From assembly GCA_965226235.1 (NCBI GenBank), contig OZ245335.1:1385552-1449551 (forward strand): 64,000 bases of DNA, given 5' to 3'. Below the pieces are notes generated by a model. It had not been told where the DNA came from and did not search any database. It saw only the letters and a list, made by a program, of their open reading frames with translations. Both the position numbers and the translations under genes were made by a program. Shown in pieces: positions 2,341-48,358 of this stretch. Source of the DNA: Candidatus Oxydemutatoraceae bacterium. Lineage in GTDB: Bacteria > Pseudomonadota > Gammaproteobacteria > Poriferisulfidales > Oxydemutatoraceae. How positions within the stretch are numbered: position 1 is the first letter of the stretch; every line of letters begins with the position of its first letter.

Positions 2341-4988
<2,648 letters not shown>

Positions 4989-5078: not shown

Positions 5079-5864
5079 ATGAAAATAGCGTCCTGGAATG
5101 TCAATTCCCTGAGGGCGCGGATGCCGCATGTGCGGGCGTGGCTGGAGGCAGCCTCGATTGATGTGCTCGCGCTCCAGGAGACCAAGGTGCAGGATGCCGA
5201 TTTTCCCTACGCCGAGATCGCAGGCTGGGGATACCATGTCGCGTATTCGGGGCAAAAGACATATAACGGCGTCGCCGTATTGAGTCGCGGCATGCCTGTC
5301 GAAGAGATGTCCACCGAGGAAACGGCCGGGCTTGACCCAGGCCAGAAGCGAATCCTGGCTGTGTCTGTCGGCGACATACGCGTGATCGACCTGTACGTGG
5401 TACAGGGAAGGGCAGTTGGCTCTGAAAAGTATGCCTACAAACTGGAATGGCTGAAATCGGTGACGGCGTTTGTCAGGCAGGAACTGGCGCGATACCGCAA
5501 GCTGGTCGTGGTGGGCGACTTCAATGTTGCGCCCTTGGATGAGGATGTACACGATCCTGAAAAATGGGACGGCGCAATCATGTGTAGCCGCGCCGAGCGC
5601 GCAGCGCTCCGCGAGATACAGGCACTCGGTCTCACCGATACGTTTCGCTTGTTCGATCAGCCCGCGGGCGAGTTCAGTTGGTGGGACTATCGTGGCGGCG
5701 GATTTCGTCGCAATCACGGGCTGCGCATCGACCTGATTCTCGCGAGCCAGGGAATGTCTCTCTGCTGCCATCGCGCCTTCATAGACAAGGAGCCAAGAGG
5801 GTGGGAACGGCCATCGGACCATGCTCCGGTAGTCGCCGAGTTCAGAGAAATCGAAGTGGTCTGA
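5079..5864 (+). CDS. xth: exodeoxyribonuclease III
   Basis: SWNVNS, LQETK, GDFN, WWDYR, GLRIDL and SDHAPV motifs. Confidence 0.96.
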   Translation: MKIASWNVNSLRARMPHVRAWLEAASIDVLALQETKVQDADFPYAEIAGWGYHVAYSGQKTYNGVAVLSRGMPVEEMSTEETAGLDPGQKRILAVSVGDIRVIDLYVVQGRAVGSEKYAYKLEWLKSVTAFVRQELARYRKLVVVGDFNVAPLDEDVHDPEKWDGAIMCSRAERAALREIQALGLTDTFRLFDQPAGEFSWWDYRGGGFRRNHGLRIDLILASQGMSLCCHRAFIDKEPRGWERPSDHAPVVAEFREIEVV

Positions 5865-5961
5865 ACTTCGGGTTCAAACCAGCTTCAATCTGGTGCCAGG
5901 ATTACCGGTGTCTGCAATTCGCCCGACTGTTTTCACTTCCCATTCGACGGTGTCCCCAGAG
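5843..5961 (+). repeat. left copy of ~118-bp degenerate direct repeat (intact xth 3' end plus decayed FAH 3' end)
   Basis: Aligns to 7107-7224, e.g. tgcaattcgcccgactgttt and cattcgacggtgtc are shared. Confidence 0.9.
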
Positions 5962-6040
5962 TACCCTGCGGAAGCGATGCAGTGCTCCGCCCCCCACACC
6001 GGCGCGAGGTAGCGCACGCCACCTTCGCTCGGGGAAAGCT
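5962..6040 (-). pseudogene. decayed copy of the 5' end of the DASS transporter gene (source ~46361-46470)
   Basis: Reads SEGGVRYLA..EHCIA versus SEGDVRYPA..EHFIA in the source, with an internal ~27-bp deletion. Confidence 0.8.
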
Positions 6041-6117
6041 CTACAGAGGTGCCGGATGGCCCGGAGCAATCGCCGGCCAGAGGGGGCACCCGGTTGCGTT
6101 ATCGTCCGCTCATCGCA

Positions 6118-6960
6118 TCAGTCGCCGAACCGGTAACCGAACAAGTCAATATCTTTTGCATATTTACGCGCAACCAGGTCACGGGTTTCCTTGGTGTAAA
6201 GACCCATGTAGCTGTCGGTGGATGCCTGTGTCACGTTGGTTTTTGTCTGTGCCCATTTGAGCAGGCGTTGGTCGAGACCGGTGCGACGGATGATGGCGGT
6301 AAGGTCATCGGCAAAACGCTCCATATGCCCGATAAAGTCAATGGCATCGCGGTCGATAAACCGGTGCTGGGGTCTGAAATGCGGTTCGCACAAGTCGTCC
6401 GGAACACGGCAGACGAAACGTACAAAATCAGGGAACGTCATTCGTTCGAACCTGATCCCGGGGTATAAGTTGTTGAACTCAAGGAATCGGCGCGGGCGTG
6501 TATTGAGGACTTTGTTGGTATAACACGAGGCGAGTCTCGACCAGGGATTTCTGACAAATGTAAAATGAAACACATGGTCGAATCCGGGCGGATCCGATGG
6601 AGACTTGAAGCCATCTTCGTGCCTTCTTACAGATACCAGACGATTGTCATCACTTTCAAGGGTGTTGAGGCGCGCAGCCACCCTGTGCACGTGCGCTGCT
6701 TTTGCAGGCAATGGATGACCTATGGCGTCGAAGAGTAGAAGTTTGACCGTCGTGCACCCGGTTTTGGGAATCGAGTGGTAGGCAAGGCAACTGCCATTGC
6801 TTTTCACAAAGAGGGTTTGACGATTATTGATCCCGGGCAGGTATCTTTTCCAGCGCAATGCCGGGGCACAACCGAAGTAACCGTAGTAGGGCACCTTGTA
6901 AACAAGCAGAATCTGGTATTTTAGATGCCACCAGAATTTTCGGATTTTTTTATTGATCAT
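6118..6960 (-). CDS. sulfotransferase family 2 protein, paralog of 45445-46278
   Basis: 5'-PSB motif IPKTGCTT, 3'-PB motif FVRNPWSRLAS, HFRPQ, and C-terminal YAKDIDLFGY. Confidence 0.88.
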   Translation of the reverse strand: MINKKIRKFWWHLKYQILLVYKVPYYGYFGCAPALRWKRYLPGINNRQTLFVKSNGSCLAYHSIPKTGCTTVKLLLFDAIGHPLPAKAAHVHRVAARLNTLESDDNRLVSVRRHEDGFKSPSDPPGFDHVFHFTFVRNPWSRLASCYTNKVLNTRPRRFLEFNNLYPGIRFERMTFPDFVRFVCRVPDDLCEPHFRPQHRFIDRDAIDFIGHMERFADDLTAIIRRTGLDQRLLKWAQTKTNVTQASTDSYMGLYTKETRDLVARKYAKDIDLFGYRFGD

Positions 6961-6972
6961 GGCAATGTTGTT

Positions 6973-7106
6973 TATGGCGCAGGATCATTGCCCCTTTTGC
7001 GATGCATCCAGGCTTCCAGCGTTGCTATCAGCGCTCGATCTCATACGCGAATACCCACTCAACACGGCGATACATAGCTGTAATAATACCCTCGGGAACG
7101 CTTGAG
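6973..7106 (-). pseudogene. decayed copy of the bioF 3' end (source ~45297-45433)
   Basis: Reverse complement shares caagcgttccc, atgagatcgagcg, ctggaagcc and gccataaacaac with the bioF end. Confidence 0.85.
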
Positions 7107-7224
7107 CAGAGCGACCGACACGGTCTGGACCCCGGATTCAGGCCAGCTTCAACCTGATGCCGGAACCACCGTGTTTGCAATTCGCCCGACTGTTTCCACT
7201 TCGCATTCGACGGTGTCTCCAGGG
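7107..7224 (+). repeat. right copy of ~118-bp direct repeat (decayed xth 3' end plus intact FAH 3' end)
   Basis: Aligns to 5843-5961. Confidence 0.9.
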
Positions 7225-8042
7225 CGCAGATATTCCGGTGGTTTTCGGGCGTAGCCGACGCCGGCCGGGGTTCCCGTGGCAATGATGTCACCCGCTTCAA
7301 GCCCCGGACATTTCGAGATATACGAAATGACGGTCGCCACGTCGAAGATCTGGAACGCCGTCGAAGCATCCTGCTTCAGTTCACCATTGACCCGGCATTG
7401 AAGCCGCAGTACCTGTGGGTTCGGGATTTCATCGGCGGTCGTGATCGCGGGACCGATCGGGCATGAGGCCGGCAGGCTCTTGGAGAGGTAGAACTGCTTA
7501 TGGCGCTTTTGCAACTCGCGCGCGGTGATGTCATTGATCACAACGTAGCCGAACACATACTCCAACGCTTTTTCGGGGGGAACCTTGTGCCCGGCGCGCC
7601 CGATGACGACACCCAGTTCGACTTCCCAGTCGAGTTTGTCCGATATCCCGGGGTCATGCGGGATATCGTCGAACGGCCCCGTCACGCAGGAAGCCGCCTT
7701 GGTAAACATGATTGGATACTGTGGCAAATCGGGATGATCGCCAGCGGTTTTGGTTTCCCGCAGGTGATCGGAATAATTCCAGCCCATGCAGATAATGTTT
7801 TTTCGTGGCCGCAGGATCGGCGCCATGAGCCGCACATCATCCATCGCCACGGTGATTTCGTCTCCCGAAGCAGCGATGAACGCGCGCAGTGCCTGCATCC
7901 CTCCGTCGCCCGCCTCAATCAGCGATTGGACGTCGGAGAGCCGGCTGTCCCAGTCCTGCGACAACATGGGCAGAGCAACCCCGTTACCGGTCATGACACC
8001 CATGCAGACCTGGTTTCTATATCGGCAGGTCACCAGTTTCAT
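7149..8042 (-). CDS. fumarylacetoacetate hydrolase family protein
   Basis: ICMGWNYSDH, DWEVELGVVIG, NDITAR, GDIIATGTPAGVG. Start set at MKLVT. Confidence 0.92.
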   Translation of the reverse strand: MKLVTCRYRNQVCMGVMTGNGVALPMLSQDWDSRLSDVQSLIEAGDGGMQALRAFIAASGDEITVAMDDVRLMAPILRPRKNIICMGWNYSDHLRETKTAGDHPDLPQYPIMFTKAASCVTGPFDDIPHDPGISDKLDWEVELGVVIGRAGHKVPPEKALEYVFGYVVINDITARELQKRHKQFYLSKSLPASCPIGPAITTADEIPNPQVLRLQCRVNGELKQDASTAFQIFDVATVISYISKCPGLEAGDIIATGTPAGVGYARKPPEYLRPGDTVECEVETVGRIANTVVPASG

Positions 8043-8276
8043 GAGGGAATTATACACATTGGCGATACCGGTTTCGTATCTCACCATGGAGGCCTGCCAG
8101 ACCGCAGAGGTGAAAGTTCGCTGGCAATCAGGTGTCGGTTGGTAAAGAGTCGCGCTTGCAGACTTCCATGGCCGCAGTAGTTTCGCTTTTGCAAAAGGCG
8201 GCGACCGATATAATGTCTCCAAACTGTTGCCGTCGATTGGCTACAATGCGTCGGTACATCCTGCCACAATCTCTCG

Positions 8277-37890: not shown

Positions 37891-37896
37891 AGGTTA

Positions 37897-38979
37897 TGTA
37901 TGAGTTCGGAAACAAATGGGACAGATGGTCTGATGTAAAAAGGAAGCCGACATGTTGATGCAACACATCGGCTTCCGCGTGCGAGGTTTCTATAAAATCG
38001 CCTCTTTAAGCAATCAACAGGAGGCGATGATGAGCACGAATGCCCAGCAGAAACTCGACGCACTTGGATTCTGGAACAAACACGGCCTGAATGCTACCAG
38101 TGACGCATACAAGGTGAGCCGCTCGACGCTGTACCACTGGCGCAAGTCTCCCTGTGAAGGCGGCATAAGCGGCCTGCATGACCGCAGCCGAGCACCACGG
38201 CAGCGCCGCCGTCGCAGTTGGCCGCCGGCACTACGCGTTGAAATACGCCGGCTGCGAACGGTTTTCCCGAACCTGGGAAAGGACAAGCTACACGTACTAC
38301 TGCAGCCATGGAGCGCGCACCGCGGCTGGTGTGTCCCAGTGCGAGTACGATCGGGCGCTTAATCGCCGACACCCCGGACAGGATGCGTCTGGTGCCAACC
38401 CGTCTAACCCCCAAAGGCAAGACCAAACCATTACGCCGCCAACGTTTCAAGCAACGGCTGGGCAACGGCTTCTGCGCGGATTACCCGAGGCACTGCGTCG
38501 CGTTCGATACGGTGGTGCGTTTCGTCGGACGCACCCGTCGCTACCTGCTCACTGCCACCGATCACGCCAGCCGCTTTGCCCTGGCGATCGCTGTGCAACG
38601 CCACGACAGCCACCACGCCGCGCGCTTCGCGGAATTGGTCCAAACCGTGTTTCCAAGGCGTATCGAACAGATCCTGACAGACAACGGCTGTGGGTTTCAG
38701 GGCGCCTTTGCCGATTACGCCAGGGCGCAGAGGTGGCGCCATTGCCACACCTACCCGAGAAGCCCGAAAATGAACGCCTTCAACGAACGTTTCAACCGTA
38801 CCGTGCAGGAAGATTTCGTCGATTACGAGGAGGAGCTGCTGCTCGAAGACCTGCGGCTGTTAGATTATCTTGATCGCTACAACGGACAGAGACCGCACCA
38901 AGGAATCAATTGCCGAACACCCTGCCAAATGCTCGCCCAGCACCTGCCTCGTTTGTCCCATCTGGGGTGGACCCATACA
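37897..38979 (+). mobile_element. IS481-family element, frameshifted transposase
   Basis: Ends TGTATGAGTTC and GGACCCATACA. ORFs 37952-38362 (HTH) and from 38308 (AFDT, TDNG, ERFNRT, RPH). Homologous to 19203-20233. Confidence 0.9.
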
Positions 38980-43254: not shown

Positions 43255-44244
43255 ATGCCCTCTACCACTGCTCGACCCATTCGCCACGACTGGAAGCGTG
43301 ACGAGATACTTGCCTTGCTTGGCTTGCCTTTTCATGACCTCCTGTACAGCGCCCACAAAACCCATCGCGATTTTCACGACCCCGCGCGCATCCAGACCAG
43401 TTCCCTGCTTTCGATCAAGACCGGCTCGTGTCCGGAGGACTGCGCCTATTGCCCACAAAGCGCGCACCATAATACTGGCTTGGAAAGGGGCAGCCTGATG
43501 CCGCTTGAACAAGTGGTCGCCGCTGCCGTGCAGGCGAAGCGACAAGGCGCCGAACGCTTCTGCATGGGCGCGGCATGGCGCAAACCCAGTGAAAAAGACC
43601 TCCGGCAGGTAGCTGAAATGATCCGTGCCGTCAAGCGGCTCGGGCTTGAAACCTGCGTTACGCTAGGCATGCTCGATGCTGCTCAGGCGCGACACCTGAA
43701 GACTGCCGGGCTCGATTTTTACAACCACAACCTTGATACTTCCCCGGAGTTTTATGGGACGATCATCACCACCAGGGTATATCAGGACCGTCTCGACACA
43801 CTGGAAAACGTACGACGGGCGGGTATCAAGGTATGTGCCGGCGGCATCCTCGGCATGGGCGAGTCACGTGAAGACCGTGCCGGCTTGCTGGAACAACTGG
43901 CCAACCAGCCTGGTCATCCTGAGTCGGTGCCGATCAACCTGCTCGTTCGGGTGGAGGGAACGCCGCTGGAGCGGCTACCCGACTTTGACCCGATCGAGTT
44001 CGTCCGGGTCATCGCTACCGCCAGGATTCTGATGCCAAAATCCTGGCTACGTCTTTCTGCAGGGCGCGAAGAGATGTCTGACGAAATGCAGGCGTTATGT
44101 TTTTTTGCTGGTGCCAATTCGATTTTCTGGGGGAACCAGCTACTAACGACAGCCAATGCCTCGACACAGCATGACCATGATCTGCTGTCACGGCTGGGGC
44201 TTGAACCCGGTGAGAAACAATCAGTCAGCTACAGGCTTTCTTGA
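43255..44244 (+). CDS. bioB: biotin synthase
   Basis: [11 protein letters not shown] radical SAM motif, [14 protein letters not shown]. Confidence 0.97.
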
Positions 44245-45433
44245 CGATATTCGCCAGCGGCTGGAAAGTAAGCGTCGGCAGGGAACCTACCGTGTCCGCC
44301 ATGCCAGCACGGGAAAAACACAACCTCACCGTGTTTGCTCCGGACAGAAAGTATTGTCTTTTTGCAGCAACGATTACCTGGGGCTCGCCTCGGACGCGCG
44401 GGTCATCGCAGCCTTCTGCCACGGGGCTGAAACCTTCGGCGTCGGCACTGGCGCAGCTTGCCTGATCAACGGGTATACAAGCGCGCACCGTCAACTGGAA
44501 GAAAAGCTTGCCGACTTCACTGGGCGTGACAAAGCGCTTTTGTTTTCAACCGGCTATATGGCGAACCTCGGGGTCGGATATGCGCTGGCCGGCAGCCATA
44601 CCTTCAGAGACAGATGCGTGTTCGAGGATCGGCTCAACCACGCCTCGCTGATAGACGCGGCTGCGTTCTCGCGGACGCGGCTGAGGCGCTATGCACATGC
44701 GGACCCTCGCTCGCTGCAACGAATGCTGCACCAGGAGAGTGACGGAGCCGCGGCTTTGGTTGCCAGCGATGCCGTGTTCAGCATGGATGGCGACATCGCC
44801 CCCCTCGCGGATCTTGCAGCAACCTGTAAAGCGCACGGTGCGATCCTGCTCGCAGACGACGCGCATGGCTTCGGCGTTGCTGGCGCACGCGGTGCCGGGA
44901 CACTTGAGCAGCAAGGGCTGTCGCAGGGTGACGTACCGCTGTTGGTGGCAACCTTTGGAAAGGCCTGTGGTACCTTCGGTGCTTTCGTCGCGGGCAGTGA
45001 AGAGCTAATCGAGTGGTTGATCCAGGAGGCACGCACCTACATTTATACGACGGCGCCGCCACCGGCTATCGCCTGCGCGACGCTGGAAAGCCTGCGGATC
45101 ATCGAACACGAAGGCTGGCGACGTACCAGGCTGCATGACAACATCGCTCACTTTCGGCGGTTGGCGCAGGACGCCGGCCTGCGAATTTCGGCGTCATCGA
45201 CCCCCATACAACCGTTGATCCTGGGTTCGGCAACGACGGCACTGGCACTGAGCGCGGCATTGGCAAAATCCGGCTTGCAGGTGGTTGCCATACGTCCTCC
45301 AAGCGTTCCCCAAGGCACTTCACGATTACGTATCACCTTGTCGAGCGCACATTCGCGCCATGAGATCGAGCGGCTGATCGACACCCTGGAAGCCCAGATG
45401 CGCCGCGCAAGGGCCAACGACCCTGTGCCATAA
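44210..45433 (+). CDS. bioF: 8-amino-7-oxononanoate synthase
   Basis: SNDYLGL, NHAS, FSMDG, DDAH, TFGKA, RPPSVP. Start approximate. Confidence 0.95.
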
Positions 45434-45444
45434 ACAACGTTGCC

Positions 45445-46278
45445 ATGACCAATAGAAAATCCCTGCAGCAGCTAAAACACCGGGTGCTGCTTGTCTACAA
45501 GGCGCTTTACTACGGTTATTTCGGTTGTGCCCCGGCGTTGCGCTGGAAAAGATGCCTGCCCGGTATCGACGACCATCAAATCCTGCTGGTGAAAAGCGAC
45601 GGCAACTGCCTTGCCTACCACCCGATTCCCAAAACCGGGTGCACGACGGTCAAATTTCTACTCCTCGACGCCATAGGTTCTCCTTTGCCTGCAGACGCAG
45701 AGGAAGTGCACAGCATGACCGAGTGCTCCGTCACCCCTGAAAATTCCGACAATCATCTGGTCGCTGCACGAATGTTTGAAAATGGCTTCAAGCTGCTACC
45801 GGATCTGCCCGAATTCAAGCATGCGTTTCATTTTGCATTCGTCAGAAATCCTTGGTCGAGACTCGCCTCGTGTTATACCAACAAAGTCCTCGACAAACGC
45901 CCGCGCCGATTCTCCGAGTTCAAATATCTTTACCCCGGGATCAGGTTCGAACGGATGACGTTTCCTGATTTTGTGCGTTTCGTCTGCCGTGTTCCGGACG
46001 ACTTGTGCGAACCGCATTTCAGACCCCAGTACCGGTTCATCGACCGCGGTGCCATCGACTTTATCGGGCAGACGGAGCATTTTGCCGATGACCTTGCTGT
46101 TATCATCCGTCGTGCCGGTCTCGACCAGCGCTTGCTCAAATGGGCACAGACAAAAATCAACCTGACACAAACGTCCCCCCGTGGCTATGTGGACCTTTAC
46201 ACTGCAAAAACCCGTGATCTGGTTGCACGCAAGTATGCAAAGGATATTGACTGGTTCGGTTACCGGTTCGGTGACTGA
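45445..46278 (+). CDS. sulfotransferase family 2 protein, source copy of 6118-6960
   Basis: IPKTGCTT, FVRNPWSRLAS and HFRPQ motifs. Confidence 0.88.
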   Translation: MTNRKSLQQLKHRVLLVYKALYYGYFGCAPALRWKRCLPGIDDHQILLVKSDGNCLAYHPIPKTGCTTVKFLLLDAIGSPLPADAEEVHSMTECSVTPENSDNHLVAARMFENGFKLLPDLPEFKHAFHFAFVRNPWSRLASCYTNKVLDKRPRRFSEFKYLYPGIRFERMTFPDFVRFVCRVPDDLCEPHFRPQYRFIDRGAIDFIGQTEHFADDLAVIIRRAGLDQRLLKWAQTKINLTQTSPRGYVDLYTAKTRDLVARKYAKDIDWFGYRFGD

Positions 46279-46369
46279 TGCGATGAGCAGACAACAACGC
46301 ACCCCCCGGAGGTGGCACCCTGGCCGGTAACTGCTGTTCGGGCCGTCTGGCATCTTTGCAGAGCCCACC

Positions 46370-47866
46370 GTGAGCGAAGGCGACGTCCGCTACCCTGCGC
46401 TGATCGCAGGCCCGCTGCTGGGCGCGCTGGTGTATGGGGTGCTGCCGGAACACTTCATCGCGCCGGATGGCGCCCCCGCCGCACTCGCCCCTGCGGCGAA
46501 AGCAACCATTGCGATCATCGTCTGGATGGCGGTGTGGTGGTTTACCGAAGCAGTACATATCGCCGTCACTTCCCTGTTGCCGCTGGTATTGTTTCCATTA
46601 ACCGGCGTAGCCGATATCAAGACAACGGCGGGCGCTTATGCCTCGGATCTGATCTTTCTGTTTATTGGCGGTTTCATCCTGGGGATGTCCATCCATCGCT
46701 GGCATCTGGACAAGCGCATTGCGCTGGCGGTTCTGCTCATGGTAGGGGAAAAGCCACAGAACATCGTTGCGGGCTTTATGCTGGTAGCCGCCTTCCTGAG
46801 TGCTTTCATATCCAATACGGCGACCACGGTGATGTTGCTCCCCATCGCTTTGAGCGTGCTGTCTTTGCGCCGCCCGACCCATTCCACAGTCCAGCCTCCT
46901 TCGACCACGGACGATTTCCCGACGTGCCTGCTGATCGCTACTGCTTACGCAGCAAGCCTGGGAGGTATATCCACCATAATCGGCACGGCGCCGAACGTGT
47001 TCACCGTGAATTTCATTCAAAATATGCCAGCCACGGAAGCGGTCGAGATTTCATTCGTTGGCTGGATGAAAATGGCACTTCCTGTCAGCCTGACCCTGCT
47101 GGTTGCCTGCTGGTTGCTGCTCACGCGCTTTGTCTTCCGGCTGGATCGGCAACCGTCCGGCATCCAGCGCAAGCAACTGCTGGAACAGTACCGTGCCCTT
47201 GGGCCGATGCGTGCCGGTGAATGGATCAGCCTGGGCGTGTTTACGCTGGCGGCGACACTGTGGATAGCGCGGCCGGCGATCAGCCAGCTTGCTATTGAAA
47301 TTGCCGGCATTTCCTATTCGCCGCTTTCCGGCCTGTCCGACGCAGGCATCGCCATGTTCGCCGCGCTACTGCTGTTTGTGCTGCCCGCAGGCAATAAGCA
47401 GGCGGCAATGGATTGGCAAACTGCCACGCGTTTACCCTGGGGGGTCATTATCCTGCTTGGGGGAGGCTTTGCGCTGGCACAAGCGGTCAAAAGCAATGGT
47501 ATCGACCTGTTGCTTGGGAACCAGGTTGCCGGTCTGGCACACTTGCCCGATTTCGCCGTGTTGCTGTTGCTGGTGGCCGTGGTCGTATTCCTGACCGAAT
47601 TCACGTCGAATACAGCAACGACCGCGGTATTGATCCCCGCGTTCGCTGCGTTTGCTCCATCGTTCGATCTTCCTCCGTTGTTGTTATTGATCCCGGCAAC
47701 TTTCGCTGCCAGTTGTGCATTCATGATGCCGATCGCAACCCCGCCGAACGCGGTAGTATTCGGCTCCGGGCAGATACGTATCCCGCAGATGGTTCGTGCC
47801 GGTTTCTGGATGAACCTGATCGCGATTGGTTTGATCACGTGTATTTCCTGGCTGTGGATCGCATGA
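46370..47866 (+). CDS. SLC13/DASS sodium:sulfate/dicarboxylate symporter
   Basis: ISNTATT, IGTAPN, EFTSNTAT, PIATPPNA. Multi-TM. Confidence 0.92.
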   Translation: MSEGDVRYPALIAGPLLGALVYGVLPEHFIAPDGAPAALAPAAKATIAIIVWMAVWWFTEAVHIAVTSLLPLVLFPLTGVADIKTTAGAYASDLIFLFIGGFILGMSIHRWHLDKRIALAVLLMVGEKPQNIVAGFMLVAAFLSAFISNTATTVMLLPIALSVLSLRRPTHSTVQPPSTTDDFPTCLLIATAYAASLGGISTIIGTAPNVFTVNFIQNMPATEAVEISFVGWMKMALPVSLTLLVACWLLLTRFVFRLDRQPSGIQRKQLLEQYRALGPMRAGEWISLGVFTLAATLWIARPAISQLAIEIAGISYSPLSGLSDAGIAMFAALLLFVLPAGNKQAAMDWQTATRLPWGVIILLGGGFALAQAVKSNGIDLLLGNQVAGLAHLPDFAVLLLLVAVVVFLTEFTSNTATTAVLIPAFAAFAPSFDLPPLLLLIPATFAASCAFMMPIATPPNAVVFGSGQIRIPQMVRAGFWMNLIAIGLITCISWLWIA

Positions 47867-48095
47867 AGATGAATGTCTGCAAGCAACGTTGCAACTGCGC
47901 CTTACAGGAAGATTCTGTGGGTTACGAGGAGGACCTGCTGCTCGAAGACCTGCGGCTGTTCAACCAGCGCCTGTTCAATTATCTCGATTGCTACAACGGA
48001 CAGCGACCGCACCAAGTAATCAATTACCGAACACCCTGCCAGATGCTCGCCCAACGCCTGCCACGTTTGTCCCATATGTGGTGGCTCATGCATCA
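47865..48095 (+). mobile_element. IS481 3' fragment with right end
   Basis: QED.V.YEEDLLLEDLRLFNQRL..YNGQRPHQ..TPCQMLAQ and tttgtcccatatgtggtgg. Confidence 0.85.
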
Positions 48096-48358
48096 TACAC
48101 ATCTCTCAAAATCGGGGCTCTTGCAGGATATTTGCGCCGAAGTTTCACGGCTCTGGTTATTGATAAGCAACAGGGCGAACAGTCCCAACCGGGTTCTTGT
48201 CGAGATGCGCGCGGCTTCCGCGTAGCGGTGGCAATCGATGGTGAGAGAGGACCCGGTAGCGCCAGTGAAAAAATCGGCAGCGGCGCGGCAGCATCACGGA
48301 TGTATGCAAGCCGAATGACAGCGCGCGATGGCGCCACCCGAGGAAACAGGACCACAAC

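Follow-up and report, generated by a model that had tools for sequence, protein, structure and literature searches.

The sulfotransferase gene ST-A lies in an insert that very probably entered its present site in one step, without a transposase, as a fragment of the resident chromosome, and with a long duplication of the target. The insert stands between the genes xth and FAH in the 64,000-nucleotide stretch of DNA that we analysed (the window). Its features at and around the insertion site are as follows.

5079-5864, plus strand: xth, intact gene of the exonuclease III family (PF03372 Exo_endo_phos, 113.3 bits)
5843-5959, no strand: left copy of the putative 117-bp target duplication, with the xth end, a spacer with a hairpin and a relic of the FAH 3' end
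5857-5881, minus strand: retained terminator-like hairpin, downstream of ST-A (minus) and of xth (plus), with a 10-pair stem and a T-rich tail
5886-5959, minus strand: decayed relic of the FAH 3' end, 63 of 73 positions identical to 7149-7222, two gap columns
5960-7106, minus strand: 1,147-bp insert, inverted copy of donor 45298-46470, 81 % identical
5962-6032, minus strand: relic of the 5' end of a DASS transporter gene, 71 bp remaining of 101 bp, with a deletion of ~27-30 bp and smaller indels
6118-6960, minus strand: ST-A, intact 280-residue Sulfotransfer_2 enzyme, the retained cargo (PF03567, 74.9 bits)
6971-7106, minus strand: relic of the bioF 3' end, 136 bp, 101 of 134 positions identical to the donor, four gap events
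7107-7222, no strand: right copy of the putative target duplication, 116 bp, with a decayed xth tail and hairpin and the working FAH 3' end
7149-8222, minus strand: intact gene for an FAH-family hydrolase, on the ST-A strand and upstream of ST-A (PF01557 FAA_hydrolase, 227.2 bits)

The genes xth and FAH are convergent, meeting 3' to 3' at the target junction. Two direct copies of this junction, put at ~118 bp each by the first-pass annotation, do bracket the insert. They measure 117 and 116 bp, agree at 94 of 117 positions (81 %) with one gap (E = 5e-23 within the window), occur nowhere else in the whole 2.109-Mb genome, and both run through an xth end, a spacer and an FAH end in the same order. 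The working ends are divided between them just as had been described. The last seven codons and the stop of xth fall inside the left copy, as judged by comparison with the C-terminus of xth in genome G001, and the FAH relic of that copy has the conserved ECE altered to EWE and a frameshift near its end. The right copy carries the working FAH C-terminus, which agrees with the '...GD(T/V)VECE(V/I)E...' of relatives. With a target duplication of 117 bp each host gene would thus have retained a complete 3' end, and both genes survive.

These observations support reading the repeat as a duplicated target; that it arose with the insert is supported by the ages given below. The reading as a target duplication rests on internal logic, since the empty xth-FAH site was found in none of the 40 relatives searched, four genomes of the same genus among them. 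In all four of the latter xth and FAH are non-adjacent, and a metagenome scan with FAH gave a best match of 55 % amino acid identity and no closer relative. An artefact of assembly is a negligible concern. Divergence of about 20 % in both the repeats and the paralogs makes their collapse or confusion impossible. In addition, contigs from two public runs (X1 and X2), which may come from the very sample used for the genome assembly and so offer consistency and not independent proof, bridge both junctions without differences (5600-6396 in record 1 and 6744-7500 in record 8 of X1, and likewise in X2), the deleted form being seen in none of them.

The source of the insert can be identified in the same window, at a bioB-bioF-ST-DASS locus with these features.

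44156-45433, plus strand: bioF, intact donor neighbour (PF00155, 158 bits)
45298-46470, plus strand: donor segment (from self-alignment; bioB-bioF-ST synteny in genomes G001 and G003)
45445-46278, plus strand: ST-B, the parental sulfotransferase (PF03567, 70.9 bits)
46370-47866, plus strand: DASS-family (Na_sulph_symp) transporter, intact donor neighbour (PF00939, 222.4 bits)

In self-BLASTN positions 6002-7104 pair with 46400-45300 on the minus strand (81 %, 900 of 1112 positions, 20 gap columns, E = 0), and in a global alignment the pairing continues over the deletion of ~27-30 bp in the copy as far as about 5962-5964 / 46470. The earlier description of 5962-7106 as an inverted copy of ~45297-46470 is right to within a few bases. 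Exactly one other copy of the insert sequence exists in the 2.109-Mb genome, and the insert contains ST-A and the two gene relics and nothing else; the DASS relic is identical to the donor at 55 of 68 positions, with five gap events. Both sulfotransferases are to be read against a PF03567 cut-off of 22 bits.

At the 45-kb locus bioF, ST-B and DASS are co-oriented, with spacers of 11 bp and 91 bp, and are probably carried on one transcript. Because bioF and DASS are intact there, and because the gene order bioB-bioF-ST is kept in G001 and G003, this locus is the donor, as the first reading of the sequence had it. The adjacency of DASS to ST is seen in the present genome only and in none of the four same-genus genomes. 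Donor and target share a replichore, with the GC-skew minimum 6 and 45 kb away, and the chance that they would be only 39 kb apart in a 2.1-Mb genome is about 0.04 if no rearrangement has occurred since. A tandem or segmental duplication was rejected as the origin of the copy, which is 39 kb from its source and inverted, hence neither adjacent nor co-oriented.

The repeat and the insert appear to be of the same age. By JC distance the repeat stands at 0.22 and the relic flanks at 0.22-0.30, and the mismatches (22/116 in the repeat, 65/286 in the relic flanks) do not differ significantly (p = 0.43). Such equal divergence points to a single old event with a resident donor. The junctions are tight: donor homology stops no more than four bases short of either repeat, and 2-4 bases per junction belong to neither side.

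Two alternatives bear on this conclusion. The first is that several rearrangements produced the arrangement, either a tandem duplication over target and donor followed by internal deletion and inversion, or the integration of a Campbell-type circle that held target and cargo. The genome is indeed repeat-rich and rearranged, with 21.9 % of it in repeats, and the insert region itself is rearranged relative to G001, where xth sits just ~6 kb from bioF-ST in a different orientation. Nevertheless, we consider such a history decidedly unlikely. It requires three events, or a circle in which both illegitimate joints were preformed, while a single event explains both the tight junctions, with four or fewer unassigned bases, and the equal ages of repeat and insert; moreover, the 39 kb that separates target from donor has left nothing at the junctions. 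The second alternative is that a close relative in which bioF, ST and DASS stand in the same order supplied the fragment as taken-up DNA, which was then inserted by the same chemistry. It might be favoured by the intact ComEC and two intact DprA homologs of this genome, by the foreign cassettes that entered it with an identical layout (see below), and by the nominally greater divergence of the relic flanks than of the repeat (77.3 vs 81.0 % identity). However, this last difference is the non-significant one given above, ComEC and DprA are found in 10-11 of 14 control genomes and therefore say little, and the required ST-DASS adjacency is missing from the four same-genus genomes. A foreign donor is, in our estimate, quite improbable.

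Of the copied fragment, what has been kept is the enzyme. ST-A and ST-B share 73.6 % amino acid identity (dS 0.32), and their dN/dS is 0.47 (p = 1.4e-4). ST-A has a single in-frame indel in 843 bp, whereas the relic flanks have accumulated 12 indel events in ~322 bp (p = 1.7e-6). Sequence comparison thus supports purifying selection on ST-A, and the first-pass annotation, which had proposed selection on the new copy, is borne out on both counts. The segments 'PKTGCTT' and 'RNPWSRL', putative PAPS-binding motifs, are present in ST-A, ST-B and the outgroups. Divergence between the two enzymes peaks in a stretch of 34 residues, including a 16-residue segment missing from the outgroups. No significant rate asymmetry between ST-A and ST-B was detected with any of three outgroups (11 vs 4, 10 vs 4 and 9 vs 7 changes).

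The duplicated spacer may also say something about expression. The hairpin at 5857-5881 has a folding energy of -21.5 kcal/mol (z = -5.8), which none of 200 shuffles equalled. Its counterpart in the right repeat copy, between FAH and ST-A, is lost (z = -1.1 and -1.6), and no terminator-like site was called there. Going only by this decay, with the copy downstream of ST-A kept, ST-A is probably read through from FAH, that is, co-transcribed with it. A promoter-like site at 6965-6936 was disregarded because it overlaps the ST-A start codon, and a 71-residue fusion ORF at 5874-6089 has no Pfam match.

The same layout is found elsewhere in the genome. A genome-wide scan gave 32 low-copy repeat pairs, of which 17 were looked at, and three cases were counted: the ST insert and two restriction-type cassettes, C and G. 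Cassette C encodes MT-A70 and a BglII-type endonuclease within a 159-bp repeat; cassette G encodes Dcm and a GHKL ATPase within a 485-bp repeat. The cargo of both is foreign, their junctions are sharp and lack terminal repeats, and for each the empty site is present in all four same-genus genomes. The edges of the cassettes are variable. A relative of cassette C in another genome (L166) is a 1,412-bp insert bracketed by a different repeat of 55 bp, and among 80 loci with relatives of this cassette a bracketing repeat of at least 35 bp occurs in three and is absent from 77. Three further cases are candidates and stand outside the count, namely I (SIR2-like, 133-bp repeat), F (ParA-like with a weak PIN, 116-bp repeat) and K (a KatG-type peroxidase, 87-bp repeat, 1 kb from a tRNA-Ser). 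Cassette D, a Thoeris pair, has the tmRNA 3' end as its repeat and was for that reason left out, and the pairs B (1913926) and 1029568/1029747 were left out as tandem duplications. For E, H and J the analysis covered the lists of ORFs, and the dsr cassette (A) also came up in the scan. It had been suggested that this could be how the sulfotransferase gene family spreads. This is not what the genome indicates: ST-A is the only dispersed sulfotransferase copy found in it with the long-duplication layout, and the other pair examined, at 1.03 Mb, is a decayed tandem duplication.

Machinery that could have moved the fragment was looked for in the insert and in the genome. The insert contains no transposase and no tyrosine or serine recombinase ORF, there is no tRNA or tmRNA at the site, and no IS ends are found at the breakpoints, the sole match that resembles an IS1634 end having 5 mismatches in 17 positions and lying internally, at 7008. 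The statement that IS ends, att site and integrase are all missing therefore stands, with donor homology running almost up to both repeats. An integrase-mediated island was rejected for want of a recombinase ORF and of a tRNA or tmRNA. An IS of the IS1634 family, or a derivative of one, was likewise rejected: inverted repeats and transposase are absent, though the 117-bp duplication fits the long and variable range of the family. A further possibility raised at the outset was a cDNA, with part of the bio-operon transcript being reverse-transcribed and then inserted. In favour of this route, the inserted sequence derives from the interior of what is probably a single transcript. Yet RVT_1 has no match in this 99.7 %-complete genome, while control genomes were matched as expected; a tail or other retro-signature is absent from the insert; and the foreign DNA cassettes have the same layout. 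We regard the retro route as extremely improbable.

The first-pass annotation had also named an IS that makes long duplications as a possible agent, and such an IS is present. An IS1634-family element of 1,893 bp (NF033559, 364.8 bits) has two intact copies with duplications of about 98 bp and 255 bp, and a related element in genome G009 has duplications of 433 bp and about 22 bp. In all there are seven IS1634-family matches in the genome, every one of them away from the ST insert. Long duplications are not a general trait of IS in this host: none were found at a 2.09-kb IS1634-type element or at IS families of 1.28 kb and 1.34 kb. Mobilisation in trans, as first suggested, fails for lack of IS ends on the insert. 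A different scenario is that the resident type-1 transposase of the IS1634 family cut the target with a long stagger and that the site took in a loose piece of chromosome in place of the IS, or after its loss. The duplications of the resident copies and of G009 would suit this scenario, and those of the transposase-free inserts (117-485 bp) are within the range of 8-514 bp reported for repeats of the IS1634 family, in an account that gives no model for them (PMC2266710). But no IS-end-like sequence is present at or near the ST junctions, nor at either edge of cassettes C, G, F, I and K. The two intact copies of the IS, at 99.8 % identity, are therefore recent, against an old ST event (dS 0.32); Ku, which would serve end joining, has no match in the genome; and the sharing of one genome by IS and inserts is co-occurrence, not association. 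We know of no IS1634 elements in the hosts of the published transposase-free cases. Those cases are also described, in the account of them, without other mobile elements (PMC2853133). Capture by a transposase is, on this evidence, unlikely.

What, then, could have happened? A stretch of 1.15-1.17 kb, comprising the last 136 bp of bioF, the entire sulfotransferase gene and ~100 bp from the start of DASS, was very probably inserted in inverted orientation at the 3'-to-3' xth/FAH junction, with the donor left in place 39 kb off and the target duplicated over 117 bp by the insertion event. The ends of the fragment would be arbitrary, and the fragment would have been built in during replication or repair. 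There are two ways to imagine this. A nascent strand might switch to the donor and then back, landing 117 nt behind its departure point; or an ectopic single strand might be joined at a fork or in a staggered gap by illegitimate joins. Microhomology at the junctions is unreadable at about 20 % divergence, so the sequence cannot separate a polymerase switch from a ligation route. In either form the event might be a kilobase-scale cousin of SPDIR or of template switching. Afterwards the duplicated hairpin between FAH and ST-A would have decayed and the one downstream of ST-A been kept, which would place ST-A in the FAH transcript. We tentatively favour replication- or repair-coupled copy-in chemistry over each of the other routes, although with less than even confidence. 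When this tentative part is blended with the firmer one, an old, transposase-independent copy-in coupled to replication or repair is the best overall explanation, and a reasonably probable one.

A broader and rather doubtful suggestion is that these inserts reflect a general, cargo-blind pathway in which stray kilobase-sized strands, whether the cell's own or foreign, are built in at forks or long staggered gaps with duplication of 50-500 bp. If correct, one pathway would import defence cassettes and make dispersed gene duplicates, and the long duplications of IS1634-type elements would be the output of the same host step, or else the transposase would supply the staggered cut.

Judged by its sequence layout, the ST insert is a case of the published insertion with long target duplication (Nobusato et al. 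2000, Gene 259:99; Furuta, Abe and Kobayashi 2010, PMC2853133) and not an undescribed system, for which it had been put forward as a candidate. Inserts of this kind, as described, are of gene size and shorter than 20 kb, lack transposase, integrase and terminal repeats, are flanked by direct duplications of unique target DNA of 46 to >400 bp, which greatly exceed the footprints usual for transposons, and often lie at gene ends, so that the neighbours survive (PMC2853133). Comparisons of genomes brought the phenomenon to light in 2000, with no mechanism given in that account; the screen of Furuta et al. admitted inserts that contain R and M genes, and the leading idea is DNA breakage through cutting by the cargo restriction enzymes (PMC2853133). 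Another account recognises this mechanism for R-M systems 'and other DNAs' (PMC3457768). The ST insert resembles the Furuta cases in its repeats of more than 30 bp (117 and 116 bp), its length below 20 kb (1,147 bp), the absence of a mobility gene and the low copy number of the repeat. An empty-site comparison like theirs, made here, gives four of four for cassettes C and G each; for the ST insert the target genes are non-adjacent in four of four. It differs from these cases in that its cargo is a sulfotransferase, without R and M genes or a nuclease, and in that the donor is on the same chromosome and still present, truncated donor neighbours having been carried along.

With IS1634 and IS1549 the ST insert shares variable duplications of tens to hundreds of bases; those inserts, however, are IS with inverted ends and a transposase (PMC2266710), and the ST insert has neither. 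Campbell-type insertion-duplication gives the same target-cargo-target product but needs a preformed cargo-target circle, and where the fragment is self-derived and has two illegitimate joints this only moves the problem. FoSTeS and MMBIR are template-switch models in which nearby DNA is copied at a break or stalled fork and the donor is kept. A copying route described in vertebrates in 2009 is similar in that nearby chromosomal DNA is copied to a break or stalled fork, with the donor kept and closely linked and orientation free; its pieces are up to 619 bp and have the SDSA hallmarks of eukaryotic repair, and, as described, it is not defined by long duplication of the target (PMC2671141). In SPDIR, ectopic single strands of own or outside origin are built into the nascent strand at the fork through two microhomology joins, as was demonstrated experimentally (10.1101/2023.11.22.568220). 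The SPDIR patches described there are 3 to ~100 bp long, give microindels and replace sequence instead of duplicating it, whereas the ST insert is 1,147 bp long with a 117-bp duplication and joints blurred by about 20 % divergence.

Relative to the restriction-gene cases published in the main text of Furuta et al., what is new here is the combination of a donor in the same genome with a cargo free of nuclease. Since the donor is known and still present, the fragment was copied in and not cut out; since its ends fall inside neighbouring genes, it was not a defined element. The resident donor, the undefined ends and the nuclease-free cargo together argue that the process is cargo-independent and driven by the host. 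Dispersed gene duplicates that survive and diverge can arise by this process. The ST insert is thus a clean and datable example of a known scar, and its genome, with two verified foreign cassettes and a long-duplication IS besides, is a place where the linkage of these phenomena can be tested.

Near the left end of the window (G000:C1:1385552-1449551), the genome of Candidatus Oxydemutatoraceae bacterium (G000; one contig, 2.109-Mb, 57 % G+C) holds an inverted second copy of part of its own bioB-bioF-sulfotransferase (ST)-DASS locus, lying within the convergent junction of xth and an FAH-family gene.

Insert and target repeat (window coordinates)
5960-7106, minus strand (inverted): insert, 1,147 bp; source 45298-46470
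within the insert, minus strand: relic of the bioF 3' end, 136-bp
within the insert, minus strand: bioF-ST spacer, 10-bp, 9/10 bases kept
6118-6960, minus strand: ST-A, intact 280-aa Sulfotransfer_2 gene
within the insert, minus strand: ST-DASS spacer and DASS 5' relic (71-bp, remaining from 101 bp at the start of the transporter gene)
5843-5959 and 7107-7222, direct copies: target repeat, 117-bp segment, 94/117 identical, one gap, E = 5e-23

Self-BLASTN of the window pairs 6002-7104 with the opposite strand of 46400-45300 (81 % identity, 900/1112), and global alignment extends the homology to about 5962-5964 / 46470, past a ~27-30-bp deletion in the copy. The layout of insert, donor and repeat described in the first-pass annotation is thus reproduced, with boundaries within two or three bases. 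The 117-bp segment occurs twice in the whole genome and no more; it contains the final seven codons of xth with the stop, a spacer of ~20 bp that includes a hairpin and, in the convergent direction, the final 24 codons of FAH with the stop. In the left copy the xth end works and the FAH end is broken (EWE in place of the conserved ECE, and a frameshift); in the right copy the FAH end works and agrees with relatives, and the xth tail is decayed. Contigs from public runs, possibly from the source sample, span both insert junctions, and the deleted form was not seen in them. Read along the minus strand, the present order is FAH, a decayed repeat copy, the bioF relic, ST-A, relics of DASS and FAH, and the hairpin. 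A 71-aa open frame at 5874-6089 (minus strand) joins the start of the DASS relic to the end of the FAH relic; it matches no Pfam family and is probably of no significance.

The 45-kb locus, with its parental gene ST-B (45445-46278, plus strand), is the source, because bioF and DASS are complete there and the order bioB-bioF-ST is common to two related genomes, G001 (with two ST genes) and G003. Adjacency of ST and DASS is found in 0/4 same-genus genomes, hence the copied fragment reflects a lineage-specific arrangement.

Divergence of the copied and duplicated segments
target repeat, copy against copy: 81.0 % identity, JC distance 0.22
bioF relic against donor: 75.4 % identity, JC distance 0.30
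ST-DASS spacer against donor: 77.4 % identity, JC distance 0.27
DASS relic against donor: 80.9 % identity, JC distance 0.22
ST coding sequence, ST-A against ST-B: 84.3 % identity, dS 0.32

The non-coding distances are comparable, since each pair consists of one functional and one free partner. Mismatches do not differ between the pooled relic flanks (65/286) and the repeat (22/116; p = 0.43), so repeat and insert are of the same age, the donor was the locus still in place or one not distinguishable from it, and all belongs to one old event. Less probably, in a genome as heavily rearranged as this one, the layout arose by rearrangement in several steps or from a circle of the Campbell type, either of which requires more events than the single copying that we prefer. 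The insertion postdates the separation of this lineage from its congeners, because their xth and FAH DNA is about 70-77 % identical and their ST proteins only 39-45 %. Donor and target lie 39 kb apart on the same replichore, an arrangement with a chance of about 0.04. The cumulative GC skew has its minimum at genome position 1385140, about 400 bp ahead of the window start, which places the replication origin probably at the window's left edge, beside gyrB (2403-4988); measured from this minimum, the target is at 6 kb and the donor at 45 kb, in one replichore.

Selection on the new copy, suspected in the first-pass annotation, is supported by two comparisons. The proteins of ST-A and ST-B are 73.6 % identical with dN/dS = 0.47, below 1 (p = 1.4e-4), and 12 indel events fall in about 322 bp of relic flanks as against one, in-frame, in the 843-bp gene (p = 1.7e-6). 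Relative-rate tests with three outgroup proteins gave 11 vs 4, 10 vs 4 and 9 vs 7 changes in A and B, none of them significant; without significant rate asymmetry, ST-A is not drifting freely. The difference between the paralogs peaks in a 34-residue stretch, which may be where acceptor specificity diverged; a 16-residue segment within it is present in both and absent from the outgroups (the congeners' ST proteins). In the left repeat copy the hairpin is strong and resembles a terminator (-21.5 kcal/mol, z = -5.8). Since its twin between FAH and ST-A has decayed and is now unremarkable (z = -1.1), and nothing resembling a terminator was called between these genes, transcription may read through from FAH into ST-A.

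What could have brought the fragment to its present place? No ends resembling those of the resident IS1634-family element are found at or near the junctions, no recombinase gene in the insert, and no tRNA or tmRNA at the site, in agreement with the earlier impression that IS ends, att sites and an integrase are lacking. The donor homology ends four bases or fewer from the left repeat and two or fewer from the right. Searches of the G000 genome for RVT_1 and Ku gave no match, while control genomes gave the expected ones; this makes classical end joining unlikely, as well as the cDNA route that the first-pass annotation had considered. Tandem duplication is ruled out by the inversion of the copy and its distance. 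Elsewhere in the window, a 1.1-kb element at 37895-38979 has three copies genome-wide, and 47900-48230, just 3' of DASS, looks like the C-terminus of a transposase of the integrase-core type.

A search for IS1634-type transposases, also suggested earlier, did find one such element in G000: 1,893 bp, bounded by perfect inverted ends of 17 bp and coding for a transposase of 555 aa (NF033559, 364.8 bits; cut-off 100). Its two copies (G000:C1:31376-33268 and 198816-200707) are 99.8 % identical and have target duplications of about 98-bp and 255-bp; fragments lie at 1362538-1363093 and 1638138-1638512. No long duplication accompanies another IS1634-family type, which is 2.09 kb long and present in two copies, or the clean 1.28-kb and 1.34-kb IS families of G000, so the trait is not common to every transposition in this host. 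In another relative, G009, a related element of about 1.9 kb is present in 13 or more copies, one with a perfect 433-bp duplication (G009:C1:590082-594731; locus coordinates 941-1373 and 3286-3718) and another with about 22 bp. Repeats of 8-514-bp have been reported for IS1634 and IS1549, no model being offered (PMC2266710). The main rival to a copying mechanism, less probable but attractive because the duplications share one size range, would be the capture of a fragment at a staggered cut made by an IS1634-type transposase. Against such capture, published restriction-modification (R-M) cases are described (PMC2853133) as being without other mobile elements.

As an architecture, an insert between long direct repeats is not a one-off in G000. 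We searched the genome for direct repeats in low copy number, 50-600 bp long and 200-8000 bp apart, and inspected 17 of the 32 pairs obtained. Cassette C (G000:C1:115552-117618; 1,749 bp) encodes an MT-A70 methylase and a BglII-type endonuclease, has 46 % G+C against 59.5 % in its flanks, and lies between 159-bp repeats at 96 %. Cassette G (G000:C1:1000620-1005785; 4,196 bp) encodes a Dcm methylase and a 697-aa GHKL-ATPase protein, between 485-bp repeats that are 99.4 % identical. Both have razor-sharp junctions without terminal repeats, and for each an empty site, where the flanks meet on a single target copy, exists in 4/4 same-genus genomes (flank overlap 153-160 bp for C, 308-475 bp for G). 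These are textbook cases. Three further transposase-free cassettes with unique repeats, all in variable regions, share the layout and are candidates for the same kind of insertion.

Further cassettes of the same layout (G000:C1)
418763-423197: 1,221-aa SIR2-like protein, 133-bp repeats
886142-888919: ParA-like ATPase and weak (sub-threshold) PIN, 116-bp repeats
2091018-2094613: KatG-type peroxidase, 87-bp repeats

A dsr-operon cassette (~469-bp repeats) was also among the matches. A Thoeris cassette (G000:C1:453713-455518; ThsA Macro and ThsB TIR, 1,540 bp, 133-bp repeats) was dropped from the count, since its repeat coincides with the tmRNA gene's 3' end, a site that integrases classically use; the repeat resembles an att site, though no integrase was seen inside the cassette, and the DNA to its right is not conserved in relatives. 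Among 80 loci from many phyla related to cassette C, bracketing repeats of at least 35 bp occur in three, one of them convincing. This BglII-type R-M relative in another genome (L166; 1,412 bp between 55-bp direct repeats, locus coordinates 3282-3336 and 4749-4803, 96 %) is probably a further long-target-duplication insertion, and its edges differ from those of cassette C, as would not be expected of a unit with fixed ends.

As a means of spreading sulfotransferases, the pasted copy is a one-off among the paralogs compared, contrary to the earlier idea that the gene family spreads in this way. By tblastn, ST-A and ST-B are the only close paralogs in G000; of three more distant ones, one lies near genome position 772,935 and two form a decayed tandem duplication. 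This tandem pair (G000:C1:1028745-1033321) is 74 % identical (DNA); after its first gene come two remnants of the 585-aa gene that lies downstream, and then a 1.1-kb multi-copy element. Tandem amplification of ST genes does occur in this genus, since the same-genus genome G002 has a tandem row of four sulfotransferase-like matches, repeated every 934 bp (G002:C9:502-3629).

The insert is a copy and not a move, made in a single event, with arbitrary ends and no element machinery. We favour a replication- or repair-coupled copy-in on indirect grounds: the donor is retained and lies nearby on the same replichore, Ku is absent and precedents exist. In one version, a nascent strand would copy 117 bp of the target, leave for the donor, copy it and return to the target 117 nt behind. 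Alternatively, a single strand of ectopic origin would be incorporated at a fork or long staggered gap by two illegitimate joins. In SPDIR, own or foreign single strands have been shown experimentally to integrate at forks via microhomology, but the patches described are only 3 to ~100 bp (10.1101/2023.11.22.568220), against 1,147-bp here; repair duplications from proximal donors are reported for vertebrates (PMC2671141). Junction microhomology is obscured by about 20 % divergence, and the sequence does not separate these routes. The same scheme would apply to the foreign cassettes if DNA taken up were the strand. G000 has an intact ComEC and two intact DprA homologs, which is weak evidence for uptake because such genes are common.

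The first-pass annotation suspected an undescribed system, whereas the kind is already known: judged by its architecture, the ST-A insert would be an insertion with long target duplication. Such insertions were found by Furuta et al. for all R-M types in several phyla, mostly in naturally competent species (PMC2853133), and have been recognised for R-M systems "and other DNAs" (PMC3457768); insertion at replication-error breaks has been suggested as an alternative (PMC11708052). Keyword searches of the literature turned up no insertion in bacteria whose donor had been identified in the same genome, and we do not claim that there is none. The ST-A insert cleanly preserves the trace of an insertion that was self-derived, used no transposase and very probably duplicated 117 bp of its target, and the same process also imported foreign cassettes into G000. 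It reveals no new system; it bears on an old unsolved mechanism and argues that the process is independent of cargo. Compared with known insertions of this kind, it adds a donor that is resident and still present, a fragment whose ends fall inside neighbouring genes and, in contrast to the R-M cases, a cargo without a nuclease.
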